DNA of 64,000 bases from a virus (lineage: Duplodnaviria; Heunggongvirae; Uroviricota; Caudoviricetes), in IMG/VR virus record IMGVR_UViG_3300032007_000002; one strand, 5' to 3'. The position numbers and the translations under genes were made by a program. The notes below the pieces were generated by a model, which did no database searches, was not told the DNA's origin, and saw only the letters and a list, made by a program, of their open reading frames with translations. Shown in pieces: positions 14,111 to 59,500 of this stretch (position 1 is the first letter of the stretch; each line of letters starts with the position of its first letter).

Positions 14111-14124
14111 TTTTTGCTATATTT
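14111..14124 (+). promoter_or_regulatory. Putative early/middle promoter TTTTTGCTATATTT (extended -10-like)
   Basis: Same motif precedes gp41, gp32, gp61, gp45 and gp46. Confidence 0.75.
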
Positions 14125-36200: not shown

Positions 36201-38440
36201 CCATTACGGGAAATTCTACCGACGGCTATGTCGTTACCGTACCGTCCGCAATCGAGGGCGAGGGCGATGCCAAGCCGGGCGACATTTCCGGGCAGGGTGA
36301 GGTAGTTCTTGACCTGATGGCGTCTGACGGGTACGTCTATTCCTATGGCGCTACGCCGGACGGGGACTTGATCTACTACATCACGGACGATGACTTCGTC
36401 GCATCCGATTTCGCATCGGGTGCCATGTTGCTCAATGTGAAGGTCCCGCTCCCCGCGAGCAAGGACGACGACAGCCGCACTACGGTAGAGCTGCGTTACG
36501 ACATGCCGTCCCTCCCGAGGGCGTCGGAAATCCGCCATCGCGCATTTGTGGACTATGGCCCGTTCGACCAGTCCAGATATGCAATCGTTGACCGTGCGGG
36601 TGACGTTTACAAGGGCCACATGGACGGCAACGGGAAATTTATCTATGACACCGACATGGACGGCAACCTGATACCTGTCGTTGACAGGGTGGACGGCTGG
36701 CGCATATTCCACGAGAGCAGCATGAACATTGCCGACATGCGCAAGGGAATGGGAGTGTTCGACGCTGCCGCGAGCCTGCTCGGTATTCTCCGCGCGGAGT
36801 TCGGCGACAAGCGCGTCGAACTGTGCGAGACGATGCGTTCTGCAGAGGACGAGGCGCAGATTTGCTCCGGCGGGCCGGAGTCTGCGTTCCTGTCATGGCA
36901 TAACTATGGTCTCGGCATAAAGATTTTGATCTATCAGGACGACCTGCGGACGCCTATTGCGGAAGACAGCGACGATTTCAGGAAGCTGATTGACATTGCG
37001 GAAGCGTTCACGGAAGACGCCCGCGAGGCGAAGGTCTGCCCGAAACCGCTCAATGTCGTGTGGTGTGGCCGTCTTGTCATGGGCGCCAATATCTTCTGCT
37101 GGGAGTTTCTCCCGATTGGCGTGGAGCACAGGGATGCCCCGAAGTTCCGCGAGGCGCTGCTTGAACGGATGGATCCGGTCGAACGGTGTTCGTTCGTGAA
37201 CGTCGATGCCAAGGGCTATGTGACGGCGGACCCACCGAAGGACCGCGTCCCGTATATCCTGTCCGGCTCGGAAACCTACCGGGATGCGGAACAGGTGAAT
37301 GGCCAGCACTACGTCGATCCGGTGAAGGTGGTGAACTATGTCCAGACACAGGTCCATCACGACCTTCCGCTGATTAACGTCATCGAGTTCATCAAGATGA
37401 TGCAGTTGAAGATGGCTGCGAACGGCAGCACCCTGACCGACCGCGCGAACATCTATGAATGGAAGTCGGTGAATGAGACCGCGTTCCGCCAGCTGGTCAT
37501 GTATTTCGGCATGGTCGGGAACCTCAGCGGTGCGCAGTCGCTCATATCCGGTGACTTCGTGGAGAGCTACCAGACAATCGTCGATATGTATTACACGACC
37601 GACATCGTGGAGTTCGTCAAGGCGATGCTGGGCAACCTCTACTCTTCGGCGAAGGTGTTCCTTACCGATGTCGGCGACGGTGGCGCGTACATCTCGCTTG
37701 CTGATGGCCGCATCCATGTGTTCGGCGAGAGCACCCGTTCCGCCTATGACCAGAACTACGGCGGCAACGTGTTCGGCGAACGCCAGGTCACCCCGACCAA
37801 GCTCGTCCGAGGTATCGAGCGCGATGGCGTGTTCTACACGGTTGAGGAAGCGAAGGCTCTCGGCATGAATGTGGAATATGTCAGCGACGGTCCGGTGCTC
37901 AGCGGCTACACGATTAACGCCGACGGCTCGGTGACCATTGACGGTGGCGATGCCCAGCTTCTCCATGCCCTTGCCGCAAGCCAGATCAAGGAACAGTACG
38001 AGAAGCTGAAATCCAGGTTCGAGGATTATGGCGGCGCGGTGATGTATGACCATTTTGCCGACGGTCCGAACGCCAACAATGCCGACATGCTGGAAAACGA
38101 GTTCGGCATTATTGCCGGGCAGACGCTGATGAGTTTCGATGCCCTCCGTGCGATGGTTGACAAGTCGGACATCAACGGTTCCGGGAACACTTTGGGAACA
38201 GGCGCGGGCAAGTTGAGCGACGACAGCTACGGCGACCTCGACGGCAACGGCAACCCGCTCGAAAGCGTGTTCGAAAAGGTCGTGTCCAATGCACAGCTTT
38301 CCGGTGTCCGGCTGGCGAGCCTGACCAGGGAACATGTTACCGAGGTCCCGAGATCCAATGGCCTGAGTGTCGAGCGCATCTATGCCATTCTCACCAACGG
38401 AAAGAAGGTGATGGGCAACGATTTGATGCGAAGGAAATAA
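33272..38440 (+). CDS. Very large late protein (1722 aa) with a degenerate M15 peptidase-like domain; probable baseplate/tail component
   Basis: Late promoter; ETMRS...SWHNYGLGIKI...VWCGR near 36820-37110. Confidence 0.7.
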   Translation: MSQLYDYEKYYKPMKATAKVKLDLSGLPLKTLASIQDEEGETTLNERVTNNVMEYVQKITAAASTGSEVMLLGNVASATNRVIHLHWTTTTAGSTPENTDVFVAAGFVADDLVKSGIVRANTTPYRRKPDTLVNGQAIRLPDDGPSDTHSPLAITLETYTADSPFPVVTAVSSVTFEYIPRYLLMVDKDTLQQSQNFSWINNVHVYRAALGCLGFDRVREHGRKWFTKTAPKDRKAITGYDALQKTLKYMSPFYNDGGMGLEVVYYDDKFKQPVTVDAPTREEWQLDRNAARAKLKAHMRDAASKDLGYTLTSMKGGTKFSALGSMLGTDSSGWINEKNRIYAEVADSDVVAQGGEVDYSKKLVSSLAGTEETGGTGTALIPNVCDAFKAFYYSKEELRSMLADALTETADEFKNAHGTPGSARAALRSFFGAVAESAFLLNTDGVGKYALDLGEIRRSLYTVGRSKQDYAGIGYYVDDDTAEISLRLRALSIRGANEYATDYTGYDTKDGYGRNVPVIAGPACLYANKGGRNVVWAGSVSETDFWKYHPTMYYDGINTYEDYIREKVSSKVDASYIKAILLAWYVEWVSNVSTKNSSSISIDQAYSRIWESVEDFDRDSSFVRNHAAVKATMAKYPYAGGMISVVRAKVSSISYDYVTWYVGGGYITARCDITAPDGSLYTVGAGNDTAHCRMNSINYATFYSPYGFSVYTLAQFATEAAILIRGMRDASASGAVANVHSWYPVNDNWKLTGEFTVLGVDETEFPLGEALFNTDGKRYVTGLDYYASAHNQYDDDIDLNDVDVSMPYFVDTVMWAYKKMLAGWRDWLDDLKVKLFAGSLIGGAAAAAASVLEFTTRKEEYEDAKDAFGRLKTAIERIRYYEYITHESVFNNKSSMYGGFAGLNFKMVPARFMVAVSMYKKVRKRYRRFGFTRHRMVKQFIGIRWAEVRMIDTNIYAEYPQLVDDTYTVYPVGQTATITGNSTDGYVVTVPSAIEGEGDAKPGDISGQGEVVLDLMASDGYVYSYGATPDGDLIYYITDDDFVASDFASGAMLLNVKVPLPASKDDDSRTTVELRYDMPSLPRASEIRHRAFVDYGPFDQSRYAIVDRAGDVYKGHMDGNGKFIYDTDMDGNLIPVVDRVDGWRIFHESSMNIADMRKGMGVFDAAASLLGILRAEFGDKRVELCETMRSAEDEAQICSGGPESAFLSWHNYGLGIKILIYQDDLRTPIAEDSDDFRKLIDIAEAFTEDAREAKVCPKPLNVVWCGRLVMGANIFCWEFLPIGVEHRDAPKFREALLERMDPVERCSFVNVDAKGYVTADPPKDRVPYILSGSETYRDAEQVNGQHYVDPVKVVNYVQTQVHHDLPLINVIEFIKMMQLKMAANGSTLTDRANIYEWKSVNETAFRQLVMYFGMVGNLSGAQSLISGDFVESYQTIVDMYYTTDIVEFVKAMLGNLYSSAKVFLTDVGDGGAYISLADGRIHVFGESTRSAYDQNYGGNVFGERQVTPTKLVRGIERDGVFYTVEEAKALGMNVEYVSDGPVLSGYTINADGSVTIDGGDAQLLHALAASQIKEQYEKLKSRFEDYGGAVMYDHFADGPNANNADMLENEFGIIAGQTLMSFDALRAMVDKSDINGSGNTLGTGAGKLSDDSYGDLDGNGNPLESVFEKVVSNAQLSGVRLASLTREHVTEVPRSNGLSVERIYAILTNGKKVMGNDLMRRK

Positions 38441-38456
38441 TTTGTAGATTTGGAAT

Positions 38457-39362
38457 ATGAAAGCGTTTATTCTATCCGACATACATGTTGACACATGGTT
38501 TGAAAATGTCGTTGACCGGAAACGGTGGAAAGTCCCCACCCCGGACAAGGACGTTGTCCCGGAAACGATGGATTGGCTGTGGAAATTCCGTGAATATCCT
38601 GTTACTGACGCGTTGATAGTTGCCGGCGACATAGCCAACGACTACCAGTCGTATGTCCAGACGGTGGAATGGCTCTCCAAGAAATACAAGAAGGTCTATA
38701 TCTGCGTAGGCAACCACGATATTCTTGTGCGCCACGCTACCCCGTATGCGTCGAACGCGAAGTTTGCGCTTTCCGAGGACAAGCTGGATGCTATTCTCAT
38801 GCAGGACTTGAAGTATGACAATGTCCATATAATCGAGGGCCGGCAGGTTGACGGTATCGCCGGGTGTATGGGCATGTGCGATCTGAAATGCGATGCCATG
38901 CCGGGGTTCGATTACCGGACCGCGTGGCGCAGGTCGTGGTTCGATGGCCGCAACTGGCGCTACATGAACCAGGAACCGGGCAAGATTTGGAACTACTATG
39001 ATGCGATGCTTACCGGGCTTTGCAAGGCTGCGCCGAAGATTGTGATGACGCACTTTGCCCCGTTCCAGGTCGGCGTGAACTGGAAATACCGCAACAATCG
39101 TGGAAATGTCTTCTTCTACTACCAGGGAGAGAAGTATCTCGACTTGCTGCCTGACGGGACGACCTGGATATGCGGCCACATTCATGACCAGAAGATTTGT
39201 GAGTGGGTGAACTCGTCCGGTGCGCACATCCGCATACTCTGTAACCCGTCCGGTTACCCGGGCGAGGGACGGTCCGAGGCCGACACGGTGAAGGTGGTCA
39301 ACGGGAAAATCGAACGGGACATCGTAACGACGACCCATGAGGACTTCATCATAGACATTTAG
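38457..39362 (+). CDS. Calcineurin-like metallophosphoesterase
   Basis: SDIHVD, AGDIA, GNHD, THFAP, CGHIH, NPSGY. Confidence 0.9.
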   Translation: MKAFILSDIHVDTWFENVVDRKRWKVPTPDKDVVPETMDWLWKFREYPVTDALIVAGDIANDYQSYVQTVEWLSKKYKKVYICVGNHDILVRHATPYASNAKFALSEDKLDAILMQDLKYDNVHIIEGRQVDGIAGCMGMCDLKCDAMPGFDYRTAWRRSWFDGRNWRYMNQEPGKIWNYYDAMLTGLCKAAPKIVMTHFAPFQVGVNWKYRNNRGNVFFYYQGEKYLDLLPDGTTWICGHIHDQKICEWVNSSGAHIRILCNPSGYPGEGRSEADTVKVVNGKIERDIVTTTHEDFIIDI

Positions 39363-45882: not shown

Positions 45883-47568
45883 ATGCTGACACATCCAGAA
45901 GAACCGAGAGAGACTTGGAGTACCAAGGTCCTGAAGCATGCCAGGGACTTTGGTATCGGCAACCCGAGGGGTGCCGACTTTGAACGTCTTTTCAACAGGG
46001 AAGACAGACTGCGTGAGGTGACTGCCGCCGAGAATACTGTCGGCGAGGGCATCACCCAGATGACATACCCGAACGGCAGCGCGACCGACGGGTTCAGCAC
46101 ATACACGCCAGCCTACAACTTCTCCGACGAGAGGTTCGACCCGCAGCAGTTTCAGAACGCGGTCGCCGAGAACCAGGTCAACCTGTTCTGGCGCAAGAAC
46201 GTGGAACGTGCGCTTAAATACGATACGGTCGCGAAGCGTGCCGAGGTGAACGAATCGCTCATCCAGATTTGCAACGAGGCGGTCTATGAGGACGACATTG
46301 GCGACATCTGCTCGCTTGAAATCGACCAGGACCTCGTCTTGGGCGATCCGGTCAAGAAGGAGCTCTGCCGTATCTTCCGACAGGAAGTCCTCCGCCGCAT
46401 CATGAATTTCCGCCGTGTCGGCGCGGAACAGATGCGCTACTTGCTTACCCGCGGGCGCCTGTTCTACGAAATCATCTACGACCCGAAGTCCAGGAAGATA
46501 GTCGGCCTGAACATGCTCCCCGAGGAGAACATGGTCATTATCTACCAGAACAACCTCATCATCGGCTTCCGCCAGATGTTGAGCGGAGCGGCCTTCTCGC
46601 AGACGGGCGGCAAGAACTACATTGATTATTCGCCGAACCAGATCCTTTATGCCTCCCTCGGTATGTATGGCCCGGGCGGCATCAACGACACCCGTTCCAT
46701 CCTGGAACCGGCCATGAAGCCGTACAACCAGTTGAATACGATTGAAGATTCCGTCGTGATGTACCGTGTCCTCTGGGGTAGCGAAAAGCTGATGATGAAG
46801 ATCGATACGTCGGGTATGAACCGCATGCAGGCCGAAAAGTTCATGAAGGACCAGGCCAAGCAGTTCTCCCGCCACCTCGACTACAACCCGATGACCGGCG
46901 AGATTACGAACTTCGGCAAGGTCGTGGGCCTTACGGAACACTATCTCGTGTCCCTCGCGAAGGGCCGTACCGGTTCGACCATCGAACGCATGCAAGGTGG
47001 CGAACAGCTCGGCAACATCGACGACCTGAAATTCTTCAAGCGCAACCTCGTCAACTCGATGATGGTGCCCCCTGGCCGTATCACCGCGCTTGCCGGGGAC
47101 AGCAACAACTACTCCAACGGAAAGATTGGTGAAGTCACACAGGCCGAAGTCTCGTTCGCCAAGCTGGTGCAGAAGTATCAGGCGCCGGTCGAGGACATCA
47201 TGATCCGCCTGTTCGTGATGGTGCTCGAAACCCACAAGGAATATAACGACGACATCAAGGTCCGCGAGAATTTCAGCGTGAAGTTCAGGCGTTCCAACGG
47301 CTTCCAGAACTTCATCGACGCCGATGTGTGGGGCTCCCGCCTCGAAACGTTCTCGAAGATGATGGACAACACCATCTCCAAGGAAAAGCCGGATGCGCCG
47401 CTTTCCAAGAAGTTCGCCTTGAAGTACGGTCTCCGTCTCAACGACGACGAATACACGAAGAACGCCGAATGGCTGGCCCGCGAGAAGGCCGAGGCTGCGG
47501 GCGAGGCCCCTGCCGGAGGCGAGGGCGAAGCCGGTGGCGAAGATGCCGGTGGGCCGCCGATAGGGTAG
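45883..47568 (+). CDS. gp20: Portal protein
   Basis: EICNEAV-like QICNEAV, SILEPAMKPYNQLNTIEDSVVMYRV, GGEQLGNIDDLKFF, EVSFAKLV: T4 gp20 family motifs. Confidence 0.93.
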   Translation: MLTHPEEPRETWSTKVLKHARDFGIGNPRGADFERLFNREDRLREVTAAENTVGEGITQMTYPNGSATDGFSTYTPAYNFSDERFDPQQFQNAVAENQVNLFWRKNVERALKYDTVAKRAEVNESLIQICNEAVYEDDIGDICSLEIDQDLVLGDPVKKELCRIFRQEVLRRIMNFRRVGAEQMRYLLTRGRLFYEIIYDPKSRKIVGLNMLPEENMVIIYQNNLIIGFRQMLSGAAFSQTGGKNYIDYSPNQILYASLGMYGPGGINDTRSILEPAMKPYNQLNTIEDSVVMYRVLWGSEKLMMKIDTSGMNRMQAEKFMKDQAKQFSRHLDYNPMTGEITNFGKVVGLTEHYLVSLAKGRTGSTIERMQGGEQLGNIDDLKFFKRNLVNSMMVPPGRITALAGDSNNYSNGKIGEVTQAEVSFAKLVQKYQAPVEDIMIRLFVMVLETHKEYNDDIKVRENFSVKFRRSNGFQNFIDADVWGSRLETFSKMMDNTISKEKPDAPLSKKFALKYGLRLNDDEYTKNAEWLAREKAEAAGEAPAGGEGEAGGEDAGGPPIG

Positions 47569-47617: not shown

Positions 47618-47707
47618 CATTTCAATGTATGATTTTCGACCGTTTTCGGGCGGCTGCCGGGGAAATACTAAACATGAGGTGAATTTTCGGTAGAAGGTCG
47701 CGGATGC

Positions 47708-47732
47708 GGGTTTCTGCCAGGTTCAGAAACCC
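47708..47732 (+). other. Hairpin in the capsid-gene leader
   Basis: GGGTTTCTG-ccaggtt-CAGAAACCC (9-bp perfect stem) just upstream of the AAAGGA SD. Confidence 0.55.
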
Positions 47733-47753
47733 TAACCAAAAGGAATTGCAAAT

Positions 47754-49250
47754 ATGCAGAATCCAGTGAAGAACAGCCTTACCCATAAGTGGCGTGCTTT
47801 CCTCGAAAGCAACATGGGTCCGGCTCCGAAGACCCGCACTGAAGCCAGCATTCTTGCTGTGATGTGCGAAAACCAGAACAAGTGCAACAAGGGTGTGCTT
47901 ACCGAAGGTGCCAACGTCTCGTCTGACGTTGCCCAGTACCAGCAGTATGCCCTCCCGATGATCCGTCGTAAGTTCCAGGAACTCCTGGCCATGAACACGG
48001 TCAGCGTGATCCCGACTACGACCCCGAACGGCATCTATTTCGCCCTTCGTTACCTGTATGACAACGAACCGCTCAAGTCCGTTGCCTTCCGTCAGGGCCA
48101 GAAGCAGGAAATTGGTTACGACCTCGTCGGTGACCACACTTCCTTCGCAGGCTTCCTGAACCCGTGGTCTACCGGCGCAGGTGAAATGCTTTCCAACTAC
48201 TCGGAAGGCACTGACATCTACGGTCGCGCCCGCGGTGCCAACGGCTTCGCTGCTACGCAGGAACCTGGTGGCCAGCTCTTCAACAACTTCGGTCGCTTTG
48301 CCGGCCAGCAGATGGATGGGGATGACTCCTTCGGTGGTTACTCCTACAACATCAAGAAGGCCTCCGTCAAGGTGATTTCCGGTGCCTACCGCGTAGGTAC
48401 CCGCGCAATCAAGAGCCACTACACTCTTGAACTCCAACAGGACATGGCTGCCGGCCACGGCCAGGACGTGGAAGCTCTCCTCCTCGAAGCTCTCCAGTTC
48501 GAAGTGCAACAGGAACAGGACCGTGAAATCCTCATGGCCATGTGCATCGTTGCCCAGAACCCGGCCCTTGGTGGTGAAAAGCCGATCGTGGTTGACCTCG
48601 CCATCGTGAACAACGGTCCTGCCCAGGGTCGTTGGCCGGCCGAACGCATCGCGTCCGGCATCATCTCCACCCTCATCGCTGTGAGCCGCAAGATCTCCCT
48701 CACGACCCGTATGGGTTGCGGTAACTTTGCCATCGTGTCTCCGGACGTCGGTGCTGCAATCTCTACCGTTCAGGGTGCAATCTACTTCAACGGCAACATG
48801 CAGGATATGACCAACCAGCCGGCCGGTGGTGTTGCAAACATCGGTAAGCTCCCGGTCGGTATCCAGATGTACCAGGACATCTACTCTAGCGTTTCCTACG
48901 CCCTCGTGGGATTCAAGGGTCAGAACCAGGGTGAATCTGGTATCATCATGATGCCGTACATCCCGTACATCTTCGTGAAGACGGCCGGTCAGGAAGACGG
49001 TTCTCCGCGCTTGATCGTTAAGTCTCGTTACGCCGTGATCGCCAACCTCCTCGGCGCCGGCCAGTTCTACCGCATGGTTCAGTTCCTCAACATGAACTCT
49101 GTGATCGCTGGCTTCGACGTGACTGCCAACCCGTGGGAAAGCAACGCATCTCTCGGTGCAAGCCTCGAACCGGGTCTCTCTTACGAGCTCCAGTCCAATG
49201 CGCTCGTGAACGCTCCGGCGGGCCTCTCTCAGGAAAGCGGCAACTGGTAA
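47754..49250 (+). CDS. gp23: Major capsid protein
   Basis: LPMIRR, GIYFALRYLY, TRAIKSHYTLELQQDM, GNFAIVSP, MPYIP, KSRYA. Confidence 0.95.
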   Translation: MQNPVKNSLTHKWRAFLESNMGPAPKTRTEASILAVMCENQNKCNKGVLTEGANVSSDVAQYQQYALPMIRRKFQELLAMNTVSVIPTTTPNGIYFALRYLYDNEPLKSVAFRQGQKQEIGYDLVGDHTSFAGFLNPWSTGAGEMLSNYSEGTDIYGRARGANGFAATQEPGGQLFNNFGRFAGQQMDGDDSFGGYSYNIKKASVKVISGAYRVGTRAIKSHYTLELQQDMAAGHGQDVEALLLEALQFEVQQEQDREILMAMCIVAQNPALGGEKPIVVDLAIVNNGPAQGRWPAERIASGIISTLIAVSRKISLTTRMGCGNFAIVSPDVGAAISTVQGAIYFNGNMQDMTNQPAGGVANIGKLPVGIQMYQDIYSSVSYALVGFKGQNQGESGIIMMPYIPYIFVKTAGQEDGSPRLIVKSRYAVIANLLGAGQFYRMVQFLNMNSVIAGFDVTANPWESNASLGASLEPGLSYELQSNALVNAPAGLSQESGNW

Positions 49251-49282
49251 CCAGCCCAGCCCGTTTACTGACGGACAATATT

Positions 49283-49315
49283 AAGGTGGCAGGGTTTCGG
49301 CCCTGCCACCTTTTT
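49283..49315 (+). terminator. Intrinsic terminator after gp23
   Basis: GGTGGCAGGGT-ttcg-GCCCTGCCACC-TTTTT. Confidence 0.9.
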
Positions 49316-49323
49316 GTATATTT
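49312..49323 (+). promoter_or_regulatory. Early-type promoter variant TTTTGTATATTT
   Basis: One base shorter than TTTGCTATATTT; ends 5 nt before ATG 49329; similar TTTGTAGATTT ends 5 nt before ATG 38457. Confidence 0.5.
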
Positions 49324-49328
49324 AGAGT

Positions 49329-49517
49329 ATGAGCAAGTTACCAGATGAAGGGGTCGTAATGGGCGGTCGCGACCCGAACGGGGAAAAGACCGTCATCAAG
49401 ATAGATACCAGGCCGCTGTCGCATGCCAAGGCGAAGCGGTTGATTGAGCAGATGGCGAAGAAGTTCAGGAAGTGCCTGAAATTCGACGCCAAGACCGGCC
49501 AGGTATTGCCTGCATAG
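49329..49517 (+). CDS. 62-aa stand-alone homolog of the portal clip segment
   Basis: Ungapped alignment to portal aa 291-341 with 16/51 identities; bounded by a terminator on each side. Confidence 0.72.
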   Translation: MSKLPDEGVVMGGRDPNGEKTVIKIDTRPLSHAKAKRLIEQMAKKFRKCLKFDAKTGQVLPA

Positions 49518-49518
49518 C

Positions 49519-49549
49519 AAAAACGGGCCCGCGATTGCGGACCCGTTTT
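49519..49549. terminator. Bidirectional intrinsic terminator
   Basis: AAAACGGG-C-CCGC-gatt-GCGG-A-CCCGTTTT between convergent genes. Confidence 0.8.
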
Positions 49550-49563
49550 GAAATTGGGGAGGT

Positions 49564-50067
49564 TTATTCGCAGGGGAGGGGATCCCATTCCGCGGCAAAC
49601 TGTGCCTGCGGGGTTCCCATGATGTCCTCGACGACCTTGGCCTCGGACGGCTGGGGTTCGCTGGACTTGTAGAGCATCTGCGTGAGGTTGGCTTCGAGGT
49701 CCAGCCCCTTGTACACCGGCTCCGGGCCGCTGTAGTCCCACTTGTCGAGCTCGTAGTTGCCTTTCGGGAGGGTGCTGACGTCGAACCCTTCCGGGAGATT
49801 GTAGAGGTCGCCGATTGCATAGCAGTCGTACCCGGCCTCGTAGTCTTCGTCGCTGATGTTTTCCCCGTTGTTCGACCACTGGATTGCGAGGAGCTTCCGC
49901 TTGTCCTTGCTGATGTAGCGTTTGTCGTCCGGGAGGGACCACTTGGGTGCACCGCCGACCGCTTCCAGGATGGCGTTGAAAGCCGTTTGTTCGCTGGGGA
50001 AGTGCGACGCGAGCTTGTTTATGGAGTTCTTGAAGTCCGAGATTGCGACGGAAAGTTGTGACTGCAT
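49564..50067 (-). CDS. Acidic late hypothetical protein, possible internal head protein
   Basis: Own late promoter (50093-50101, - strand) and AAGGA SD-like sequence; ILEA motif ending an N-terminal helix. Confidence 0.75.
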   Translation of the reverse strand: MQSQLSVAISDFKNSINKLASHFPSEQTAFNAILEAVGGAPKWSLPDDKRYISKDKRKLLAIQWSNNGENISDEDYEAGYDCYAIGDLYNLPEGFDVSTLPKGNYELDKWDYSGPEPVYKGLDLEANLTQMLYKSSEPQPSEAKVVEDIMGTPQAQFAAEWDPLPCE

Positions 50068-50092: not shown

Positions 50093-50140
50093 TAGTTTAT
50101 AGAACGGGGTTGCCTTTGTCGGGCGCCGACTTATAAACTA
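50093..50140. promoter_or_regulatory. Back-to-back divergent late promoters: TATAAACTA on - (50093-50101) and + (50132-50140)
   Basis: Exact motif on each strand, each pointing into a gene. Confidence 0.8.
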
Positions 50141-56556: not shown

Positions 56557-59500
56557 ATGCAGAATGAAGACAAGCTGATTAAGCAGATTGACGCGATGAC
56601 CTACAACGCGCGGCAGGCTATCAACGCTCTCAACCGCTCGGTGATGAAGGCCGGGTCGTATAACGGGTTTACCGTCGAACGCGCTGGCGAGACGGTAACG
56701 CTCGACCGTGCGGACATCTACAAGCTGTATAAGTTCTACGAGGAATGGGAATACCGTTCCGGGGAGACCCCGTTCGCACAGGACATGTTCGAGACGGCGA
56801 TGGAACAGGCCGACATCCAGGTTGGTGGTCCGTCCGCGTCAGAAGTCCTCGTCAAGCACGCCAAGATACTCTATAAGAGCGCCACGAACGCGGAGCATAC
56901 CGATGACCAGTTCTGGCTCGACAAGATCAAGAATGCGACCAACCCGAAGCTGGTCTCCAACTCGGCGCCGATTCCGCTGAACTTCCGCGCCCCGATTTAC
57001 GACGAGAACCTTTCGACGAAGCATTACAGCCAGTATGAGACCTACCTGTTCCCTGCCGGCTACAACTCGATTGACCTTCTCGGTTTCCAGGGTGACGGGA
57101 CCGACCACCTCGCGGGTGGCCTGAACTGGCGCTTCGAGATTGACGACACGTTCACCGTGAACGCCAACAAGTTCCTGTTTGGTACGCACCGGTTTGACGA
57201 AGTGAAGGCGATGCCGTACACCGACTACAACGAGCGCTTCGCGTTCATGACCGGTGTCGATTGTTATGGCTACGGGCCGAATACCTTTGCTGGTGGCCAT
57301 AGCTGCGTTTCGTATCTCGGTGAGTCGTTCTCATACGGCTATGGCGGTGTCGCCTATGGCGAGGAGTCCGCGACGATTGCGAGCCTGTTTGGGTATTCCC
57401 TCGGGACAGCGTCGTTTACGGAAGGCGGGTATATCCATGCCACGGCCGATTTCGGCGCCGCGTTCAACTACATGACGCAGGCCGGCGGCTATCGCTACAA
57501 GTTCACTACGTTCGCGGACGACGATGACGATACTGCGGACAGCGGAACCGAATGCCAGAGCCGTATCGTGGTTGACGGATGTACTTATACCCGTGCCACG
57601 GGTGCCACCGTGTCCAAGGCGGGGCTTGCCCCGAACCAGATCCGTATCGCGAAGGATGAGTGGGATAACGGCATGCACAGGTTCTACCTCTCTGTCGGCG
57701 ATTCCGTGTATCTCTACAACTGGGAAACGGTCGGCTCTGATGGCAAGGCCCAAAAGCACAATTCTTCCGAAAGCTGCGTCCTGAAGCCTTTCGTCTGCAA
57801 GATTACTGAAATTTCATCCAACGGCAACCTCGACAAGATTATTTCTCTCGACAAGAATGTTACCAACCGCGAAGGGTTTGCTATCGCTGGCGGTAGCATC
57901 TGCGCATACCAGGTTGAAGTTACGGGCATGAACCCGTATAATGCTGCCAACTGGACAACGCCGGGTGCGAACTCCGCGATTACCTATACGGTCGAGTGCG
58001 GCCGTTATAGCGCCGCGCTGAACTACCAGACTACCGCGATGGGCATGGCCCAGACCGTGGTCGGTGCCAACAACGTCCCGATGCTTGAACCGAGGTTCAT
58101 TGTCGGCTGTGGCTATATCGACCGCATGACCCCGGGAGCGGGTTCCGATTTTAGCGGTCTTGCTGGCCGCATGGAAAATGCGTTTGTTGCCGGCCCGAGA
58201 TATTCGTTCATGAAGCTGGCCAATTCCAAGGTGATTGTCGGTGTGTCCGACCATCGCAACACTGCCGATATGCCGGCATGCGGCTACAATACGGCCGTCG
58301 TCGCGGACGAGGCATCCAAGTATGGTATCTACCAGCTGACGGGCGCATACGCGATTACCTGGGACCCGACCGAGAAGATTAAGGGTATCAGCCACGTTTG
58401 CTATGACCGTGGCGAGTTCTCCGTCAATGGTGATGGTCTTCTCGTTCGCCCGATCCCGACCGGCGACCGTTCCGGCGCTGCCGAGTTCGGTTTCCGTGAC
58501 ATTTCTACAAGGCTTGGCGGTGCCCATGGTTCCACGGTAATCTGGTCAGGCAAGGACCCGGACAAGGACCAGATGATGTGGGAACGCTACCAGTACATCC
58601 AGGCTCGGAACGCTGGTACGGAACCGATTAACCGTGTTCACATCTATGGTGAGGACGGCATCACTGTGGAGACCCCGCAGACAATCAAGATGATTGCCCG
58701 CAGGACGGACGGTAACGAGACTTCCTACATCGACATGGATTTCGAGCGTCTCATCCTGAGTGGCCAGACATACGGCGCCCTTGCTGCAGACTGCACGTCC
58801 CGTTCTTACAGCCTCCGCGGCGATACGCTGTTCGTGAACCCGGAATACATGGCCCACAACAGGGAAAGCCACAGCGGCTTCCACTTCGACTGGGCGGACG
58901 GCTATCTTCCGAACGAAGGCCTCCCGGCCGCGTTCCAGAAGTCTTCCTACTGCGACGCATACCACTCTATCGTCAGCTCCTATGTCTATTCCACGACATC
59001 CACCCACTTCAAGGAAAACCACGACGACACCCAGTCGAACAGCGCCTATGACGTGGCTGGCTTCATTCTCCCGGGTGCACTCACCGACTCCATCATGCGC
59101 AACATGTATGTCATGCCGCGTGTCCAGGTCTTCTCCAACACCATCTTCGGTGACGGCAACGGAGGCAAGAACCCGGAAGGCGCATCCCTCTATGAGGAAC
59201 TCGCCTACATGCGCGATGTTGACATGGCCATTGATACGGCACCGAAGGAAAGGGTCGGCACCGGCACCTACTGCCGCGTGGAAAATGGCGTCGTAAAGAC
59301 GAATGACACGACCGCGTCCCAAACAATTCCGGCTTACGTCTATGACAACAAGACCGGCATCATCAAGAAGACCGTTGAGGGCGTGTTTACTACGCCGTGG
59401 TTGAGCGGTGGGCTGGATGGGACCGCCCAGCAACAGGTCCACCAGATGATGGGCGATTATGGCATTATGTGGAACGCCAATTCGTTCGGCTACTGCCTGT

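Follow-up and report, generated by a model that had tools for sequence, protein, structure and literature searches.

The clip of the phage portal is a docking hub for the packaging motor, for neck proteins, and for host immune sensors of two or more kinds. In the genome of an uncultured jumbo phage of ~436 kb from the rumen, a short gene behind the capsid gene encodes a protein of 62 amino acids that resembles this part of the phage's own portal, which raises the question of why the clip would be made as a free protein and which of its partners it would engage. We addressed this question within the whole stretch of 64,000 nucleotides of phage DNA under analysis (here called the window), in which the locus comprises the following features:

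45883-47568, + strand: portal gene, 561 aa (Portal_T4, E = 2.8e-64, profile positions 3-431)
46747-46914, + strand: paralogous clip segment of the portal gene, aa 289-344 (BLASTP, Pfam, hhalign)
47754-49250: gp23-type capsid gene, 498 aa, ending 78 nt 5' of the mini-gene
49283-49312, + strand: intrinsic-terminator hairpin with a 13-bp stem and T run (-27 kcal/mol, z = -7.1), closing the capsid gene and opening the mini-gene unit
49312-49323, + strand: promoter-like motif TTTTGTATATTT, invariant in relatives
49329-49517, stop codon included, + strand: mini-gene, a stand-alone portal clip homolog (ATG-initiated open reading frame [ORF], 62 aa)
49359, + strand: alternative start M11, with AAGGGG 5' of it, giving the 52-aa form called in many relatives
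49389-49514, + strand: conserved core T21-A62, equivalent to T4 gp20 283-321 plus 3 residues
49520-49549, both strands: bidirectional terminator hairpin (A run before, T run after), common to the mini-gene and the convergent gene
49564-50067, - strand: convergent gene, 167 aa, sharing the 49520-49549 terminator

The mini-protein is a homolog of the portal clip

The gapless match that the original prediction had drawn between the 62-aa ORF and portal aa 291-341 (nt 46753-46905), with 16 identities in 51 positions, was reproduced. BLASTP aligned mini-protein aa 19-59 with residues 301-341 of the same portal (E = 1e-7), and a profile of the mini-protein family matched it in hhalign over 55 columns (7-61 versus 289-344; 95.5%, E = 1.3e-8). 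The Pfam match of the 62-aa form to Portal_T4 (PF07230) is marginal (E = 5.5e-5; 22.5 bits against a curated cut-off of 22.9 bits); the 52-aa form exceeds the cut-off with 23.3 bits, and a homolog of the P0026 type reaches 31.3 bits. With this match at threshold and a second one to PHROG 213 (portal), the profile search that had been proposed against the gp20 family gave a significant result. When 50,697 phage records were searched by tblastn, most of the matches listed lay in annotated portals, and nearly all covered query positions 19-59. One of them, H3 in LR745208, was rejected, being antisense to a 404-aa gene; a third match in G001 (57384-57530), from the clade of the window, was likewise discarded, as it runs antisense to real genes.

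The T4 gp20 clip domain comprises residues 279-358, protrudes from the capsid, and serves as the attachment site for gp17 and the neck (PMC4493910). The mini-protein family profile aligns to gp20 282-321 (HMM alignment to 3JA7/6UZC), which places the ORF within the clip and at the gp17 docking site, as had been claimed, and mini-protein residues 26-49 align exactly with gp20 288-311. For the portal of the phage itself, the alignment to gp20 covers portal aa 113-543. Coverage of Portal_T4 by the mini-protein is restricted to positions 205-245, i.e., ~41 of 433, and of the portal architecture (wing, stem, clip, and crown) it has the clip part only. Without wing, stem, and crown it would be unable to form a portal; judged from its sequence, the product is a homolog of the Portal_T4 domain and not a portal.

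Strand, tip, helix, and hairpin of the T4-type clip (PF07230; 3JA7, 6UZC) all have homologous counterparts in the mini-protein, and the two have in common a D-T motif, a hydrophobic tip residue (the equivalent of M292), and the helix core (A, K, F, L). In contrast to a T4-type portal, the mini-protein is the product of a separate gene with its own promoter-like motif and terminators, lacks the channel loops as well as the other portal domains, and is far more basic than a portal clip. The tip differs too, reading RPLSHAKAK where the phage's own portal has SGMNRMQAE, so that binding to the phage's own terminase is not implied. A recent capture from the portal of a sister phage was considered and rejected: the mini-gene profile reaches 28-43 bits with sister portals and 33 bits with the phage's own, which singles out no clear donor. 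Literature searches returned no description of stand-alone clip genes.

Predicted structure of the conserved core

In the core, the strand (TVIKIDT) is followed by the tip (RPLSHAKAK), by an amphipathic helix (residues 32-46), and by a beta-hairpin (50-61); its net charge is ~+8 as counted from the sequence. Residues T21, V22, I23, D26, T27, R28, H32, A33, A35, K36, and L38 are invariant, and constraint is tightest in TVIKIDTRP-SHA-AK, which comprises strand and tip, and in the hairpin; variation among relatives falls on exposed positions of the helix and on residues 18-20. An AlphaFold2 monomer model (mean pLDDT of 71.5; 83-91 over residues 21-40) has a disordered N terminus, residues 21-27 extended and unpaired, a helix at 32-46, and a hairpin at 50-61. 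The modeled elements correspond to those that build the inter-subunit sheet of the T4 clip. Fold searches with this small and open model returned little: Foldseek against the PDB gave nothing at E <= 0.001, with T4 portal chains at low probability from rank 8 down, VIA-align gave no Z >= 2, and no look-alikes were found in the ESM Atlas.

The mini-gene has the layout of its own transcription unit

The mini-gene had been described as a unit between two terminators, and strong hairpins do fold on both sides of it. The downstream hairpin has a folding energy of -19 kcal/mol (z = -4.0) on the + strand and of -23 kcal/mol (z = -5.5) on the - strand, and both flanking hairpins are nearly invariant in relatives. 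The promoter-like motif contains a -10-like TATATT at 49317-49322, 6 nt 5' of the ATG, with no Shine-Dalgarno sequence, which amounts to a leaderless layout.

The element TTTTTGTATATTT upstream of the mini-gene equals TTTGCTATATTT minus one base. Five exact copies of TTTGCTATATTT occur in the window (at 14113, 18071, 19807, 23210, and 29888), and the genes 3' of them encode a DnaB-like helicase, a gp32-like SSB, two unknown proteins, and a gp46/Rad50-like ATPase. This motif, which resembles an extended -10 promoter (TGn-TATATT), probably represents an early or middle promoter class of the phage. The TTTGTAnATT-N6-ATG layout of the mini-gene was found once more as TTTGTAGATT-N6-ATG:

38440-38459 (gene at 38457), no Shine-Dalgarno sequence: start of the gene for a calcineurin-like phosphoesterase, 301 aa, possibly gp47/Mre11-like, with a Pfam match from residue 1

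Structural genes of the phage carry AGGA, and the start of the phosphoesterase gene suggests that, beside them, the phage has a group of mRNAs that are leaderless. A late-like motif, TATAAACTA, was counted 7 times in the window against 0.05 expected occurrences, each site being oriented toward a nearby gene start:

6237, 33224, 42709, 50132, 56513, and 62478: TATAAACTA
50093, - strand: TATAAACTA

The motif looks like a T4-late-type promoter. It is absent from the mini-gene unit and precedes the neighbors of the mini-gene as a divergent pair at 50093 (-) and 50132 (+). Since the mini-gene carries a variant of the replication-gene motif and has the layout of the phosphoesterase gene, and structural genes carry AGGA, its signal belongs to a nonstructural, probably early or middle, leaderless class. 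The suggestion of an early-type motif stands insofar as the signal is a variant of the replication-gene motif and not the late TATAAACTA; the variant is one base shorter than TTTGCTATATTT, and early timing is a prediction only. The late-like motif, as TATAAACT, also precedes the prohead-protease module in a distant relative (L014).

The capsid gene is represented by RNA contigs in four metatranscriptome runs; for one of these, X15, coverage includes the 167-aa gene as well. No contig was found over 49320-49560 in the four runs, from which a short, possibly early, low-abundance transcript could escape. Capsid-gene RNA contigs from two independent studies end at 49274-49276, which weakly hints at a capsid mRNA that stops short of the mini-gene. 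In sheep and cattle rumen metatranscriptomes of several studies, contigs span the whole capsid gene (47700-49276) with up to ~540x word depth, and the phage group is therefore actively transcribed in vivo.

The mini-gene is maintained and evolves fast

Homologs of the mini-gene with 67 to 94% identity form ~17 protein clusters (clustered at 90% identity) from rumen and gut metagenomes, on contigs of up to 438.8 kb. In every locus that reaches that far, the order of portal, major capsid protein (MCP), mini-gene, and convergent 167-aa gene is constant. Codons were compared among eight distinct mini-gene sequences with up to 16% nucleotide divergence. Start and stop codons of the ORF are identical in all of them, and + frame 0 is open in 8/8 and has the lowest pN/pS of the six frames. 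The ratio is 0.52 for the mini-gene (codon bootstrap, 0.32-0.92), compared to 0.08 for the capsid gene and 0.22 for the 167-aa gene; its dN is 4 to 10 times that of its neighbors, and its dS is ~1.7 times higher. On these counts, the mini-gene is under purifying selection yet fast-evolving. Together with the number of clusters, the constant gene order, and the remote stand-alone homologs described below, this supports the view of a maintained paralog, not debris, that the prediction had advanced.

Constraint is uneven along the ORF. Codons 50-62 have a low pN/pS, and changes in codons 1-10 are nearly all synonymous (pN/pS of 0.08 over the eight sequences), which favors M1 as the start over M11, frequently picked by gene callers in relatives instead. 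A perfect 10-bp palindrome, GGTCGCGACC, lies at 49365-49374 within codons 13-16. Over codons 11-17, synonymous change is nearly nil (pS of 0.006 over codons 11-20), with flanking codons varying, and palindrome and synonymous quiet may point to an RNA or DNA element inside the coding frame. In one variant (L011, 2985-3174 of 436,174 bp; also L012), a 1-nt insertion is found at codon 20; an upstream out-of-frame ATG yields a 57-aa product with a new N terminus and an intact clip core. This variant is present on three contigs from at least two samples.

Distribution of the mini-gene in related and distant phages

A blastn search with the region against the 50,697 phage records gave no match, and the phage's own portal is only 24 to 28% identical to any deposited phage portal. 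By these comparisons, the phage is far from any deposited phage. Among 38 sister viral contigs with 63 to 72% identical capsids, the mini-gene was absent within 5 kb of the portal-MCP pair in 38/38; the pair and the terminator are present in these loci, with other genes downstream. The mini-gene family profile was also run on five large sister genomes, of which three are at least 91% complete, and matched the portal only. The mini-gene is an accessory gene, and sister phages lacking it were recovered from the same samples as carriers (3300028887 and 3300028914).

In sister clades (L025-L062), a terminator, a 59- to 82-aa protein, a prohead protease, and a scaffold protein follow ~100 to 2500 nt past the capsid gene, and sometimes an inserted gene for a 528- to 535-aa protein stands ahead of the module of small protein, prohead protease, and scaffold. 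In the clade of the window, this module is located ~93 kb away (in G001). The mini-gene thus lies at a breakpoint where the head module has been rearranged.

When 1.8 billion representative proteins were searched exhaustively with the profile, the search returned no portals above E 0.001 and two further stand-alone lineages, with 35 to 43% identity and a different gene context in each. In the first (P0019/P0026, 76 to 77 aa; L063), the gene belongs to an array of small ORFs on one strand, among them ORFs for NADAR and DUF488-N3a proteins. In the second (P0022, 46 aa; L014), it is coupled in translation to the gene of a 122-aa protein bearing DnaJ-like CxxCxGxG motifs and is positioned directly upstream of a terminator, the TATAAACT motif, and the prohead-protease module. 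The proposed search for stand-alone homologs of less than 100 aa has therefore yielded intact genes in relatives and remote ones of 46 to 77 aa. In L014 (9636-10141 and 19064-20141), the mini-clip gene overlaps (ATGA) the stop codon of the 122-aa protein, which has two CxxCxGxG zinc-finger motifs, and a TnpB/Cas12f-like gene is found on the same contig. No homolog of the zinc-finger partner (P0024) was found in the window.

In all three lineages, the protein starts just ahead of the strand. All mini-clips have TVI and A-K, features absent in portals, which have L-V/M-M/L and A-E at these places. The common start and the derived residues argue for one family and against repeated debris. Patchy, fast-evolving, and found in three different contexts, the gene has a counter-defense-like profile.

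A candidate mimic of the clip that may target the packaging motor

Because the gene is conserved, fast-evolving, and patchy, its product is probably a soluble mimic by which a partner of the clip is sequestered. The clip core, comprising strand, exposed tip, helix, and beta-hairpin, would be made as a free soluble protein and would occupy the site with which the partner normally docks on the assembled portal clip. As this partner, we tentatively propose the large terminase (TerL), for which the mini-protein may act as a competitive clip mimic; TerL appears the most likely target. We rank it first because for no other interaction is there an experimental precedent with exactly this segment and because the conserved part of the mini-protein is the tip with which the T4 clip touches the motor. 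In gp20, the clip tip residues N291, M292, R295, and K296 contact gp17, and their mutation abolishes packaging (PMC4493910). A 24-residue peptide, gp20 288-311, binds gp17 and inhibits packaging, as the same paper recounts from earlier work (PMC4493910, citing its ref. 34). The equivalent of this peptide, tip positions included, is present in the mini-protein (residues 26-49), where the homologous inhibitory segment would stand within a folded context. The T4 peptide is a laboratory reagent, whereas the mini-gene segment is natural, conserved, and diverged from the phage's own portal, and its TerL binding is putative. The gp20-gp17 interface is mainly electrostatic, against acidic gp17 residues (PMC4493910), so that the strongly basic core of the mini-protein also favors TerL as the target.

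The use of such a protein could lie in blocking packaging by co-infecting related phages or satellites. Since sister phages do without the mini-gene, interference with rivals appears likelier than a housekeeping brake on the phage's own motor, and the occurrence of gene-lacking sisters in the same samples as carriers favors interference as well. Small satellite proteins that block a rival's packaging are represented by Ppi of SaPIs and Rpp of PICIs, which act via the small terminase. The likeness lies in a small protein of a mobile element that is directed against a rival's packaging through the terminase; Ppi and Rpp differ in targeting the small terminase, in having no homology to portals, and in being encoded by satellites and not by phages.

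Several points speak against a TerL mimic. As a monomer, the mini-protein would be a poor competitor of a 12-fold ring, and the P0019/P0026 lineage is not basic; the NADAR and DUF488-N3a neighbors of this lineage are more suggestive of a counter-defense island. The early-type promoter is unexpected where the target is a late enzyme, unless pre-loading is meant. Co-folding of TerL from the clade (568 aa; alignment of 42 rows) with the mini-protein (alignment of 12 rows) gave a score of 0.00, which speaks neither for nor against binding. If the mini-protein does bind TerL, it would be a natural packaging inhibitor and would point to warfare among related jumbo phages or satellites.

Immune sensors as possible alternative partners

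An immune sensor is the next candidate partner, only slightly less likely than TerL. A free clip made ahead of the portal would bind clip sensors, such as SpbK-like TIR proteins or STAND receptors of the Avs4/Avs11 type, without activating them. As a monomeric fragment, it would offer neither the dodecameric platform nor the full interface required for activation. We consider it unlikely that the mini-protein is the first "trigger-mimic" decoy, in which a free epitope fragment saturates host receptors without activating oligomerization.

The statement that portals trigger Avs4-type receptors agrees with the literature on Avs4, Avs11, and SpbK. The N-terminal domain of SpbK binds the clip helix of the SPbeta portal, the clip ring being the oligomerization platform (PMC12847820), Avs4 and Avs11 sense portals (PMC13581612), and on monomeric portals EcAvs4 makes contact with stem, clip, and wing (PMC12847820). 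An upstream motif of the replication-gene type and not the late TATAAACTA fits a sensor decoy. So do the fast evolution, the patchy distribution, and the other location in each lineage, which are typical of counter-defense genes, and the array of L063 with its NADAR and DUF488-N3a proteins. Against these stand the points that a STAND-binding fragment might activate the sensor instead, that only ~40 residues of the large Avs4 interface are covered, and that the exposed helix and tip are unlike the phage's own portal (~30% identity).

Known counter-defense offers a partial likeness. The counter-defense protein of SPbeta, Nip, acts on the enzyme domain of the sensor and is not known to be a trigger mimic. 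SpbK/EcAvs4 and the SPbeta counter-defense share with our case that the clip is a documented immune epitope and that phages encode small early counter-proteins (PMC12847820); the SPbeta counter-defense is represented there by a reference title only (PMC12847820, ref. 43). A survey of 268 known anti-defense proteins gave no text match for a protein that imitates a structural trigger or serves as its decoy and no description of a decoy built from a trigger fragment, so the idea is novel, yet without a supporting example. If the mini-protein does bind a sensor, this would be a new counter-defense principle, with a decoy derived from the trigger itself.

Relic and assembly-factor explanations

It is improbable that the ORF is a decaying portal fragment that is open by chance, or a basic peptide with an unrelated job, e.g., nucleic-acid binding. 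The moderate constraint (pN/pS upper bound of 0.92), the frameshifted variant, and the high core charge would fit such an origin. On the other side, the frame is open with the same start and stop in all eight relatives, pN/pS is low at both ends (codons 1-10 and 50-62), the flanking signals are nearly invariant, and the frameshift variant retains the core via another ATG. The remote stand-alone homologs in two other lineages share the derived TVI and A-K, and the persistence of the family across three lineages weakens this explanation.

Quite improbable is a role in which the free strand and the hairpin of the mini-clip pair with the portal clip, by the inter-subunit beta-sheet that the ring uses, or with neck proteins to chaperone, cap, or poison ring assembly or head completion: the T4 clip sheet is three-stranded, with one subunit giving a single strand and its neighbor two, as the only main-chain inter-subunit contact (PMC4493910), the monomer model has the hairpin formed and strand 21-27 unpaired, and two of the three contexts are beside head genes (after portal-MCP in the window, upstream of the prohead-protease module in L014), but a core factor would be expected in sister phages with such similar capsids, which lack the gene, the mini-gene evolves much faster than the adjacent head genes, and its promoter is not of the late type.

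Free-standing clips as probes of clip interactions

A natural free-standing clip would be a ready probe for clip interactions, and the case illustrates how parts of structural genes can come to serve as small proteins in regulation or conflict. Phage microproteins of this kind are usually missed by annotation pipelines or tagged "hypothetical." Concerning the motor itself, TerL in the clade of the window is free of inteins, and intein invasion of TerL is common in the jumbo-phage group: many TerL homologs (P0030, P0032, P0052, P0086, P0089, P0114, and others) are 946 to 994 aa long and carry intein/LAGLIDADG domains (PF14528, PF14890).
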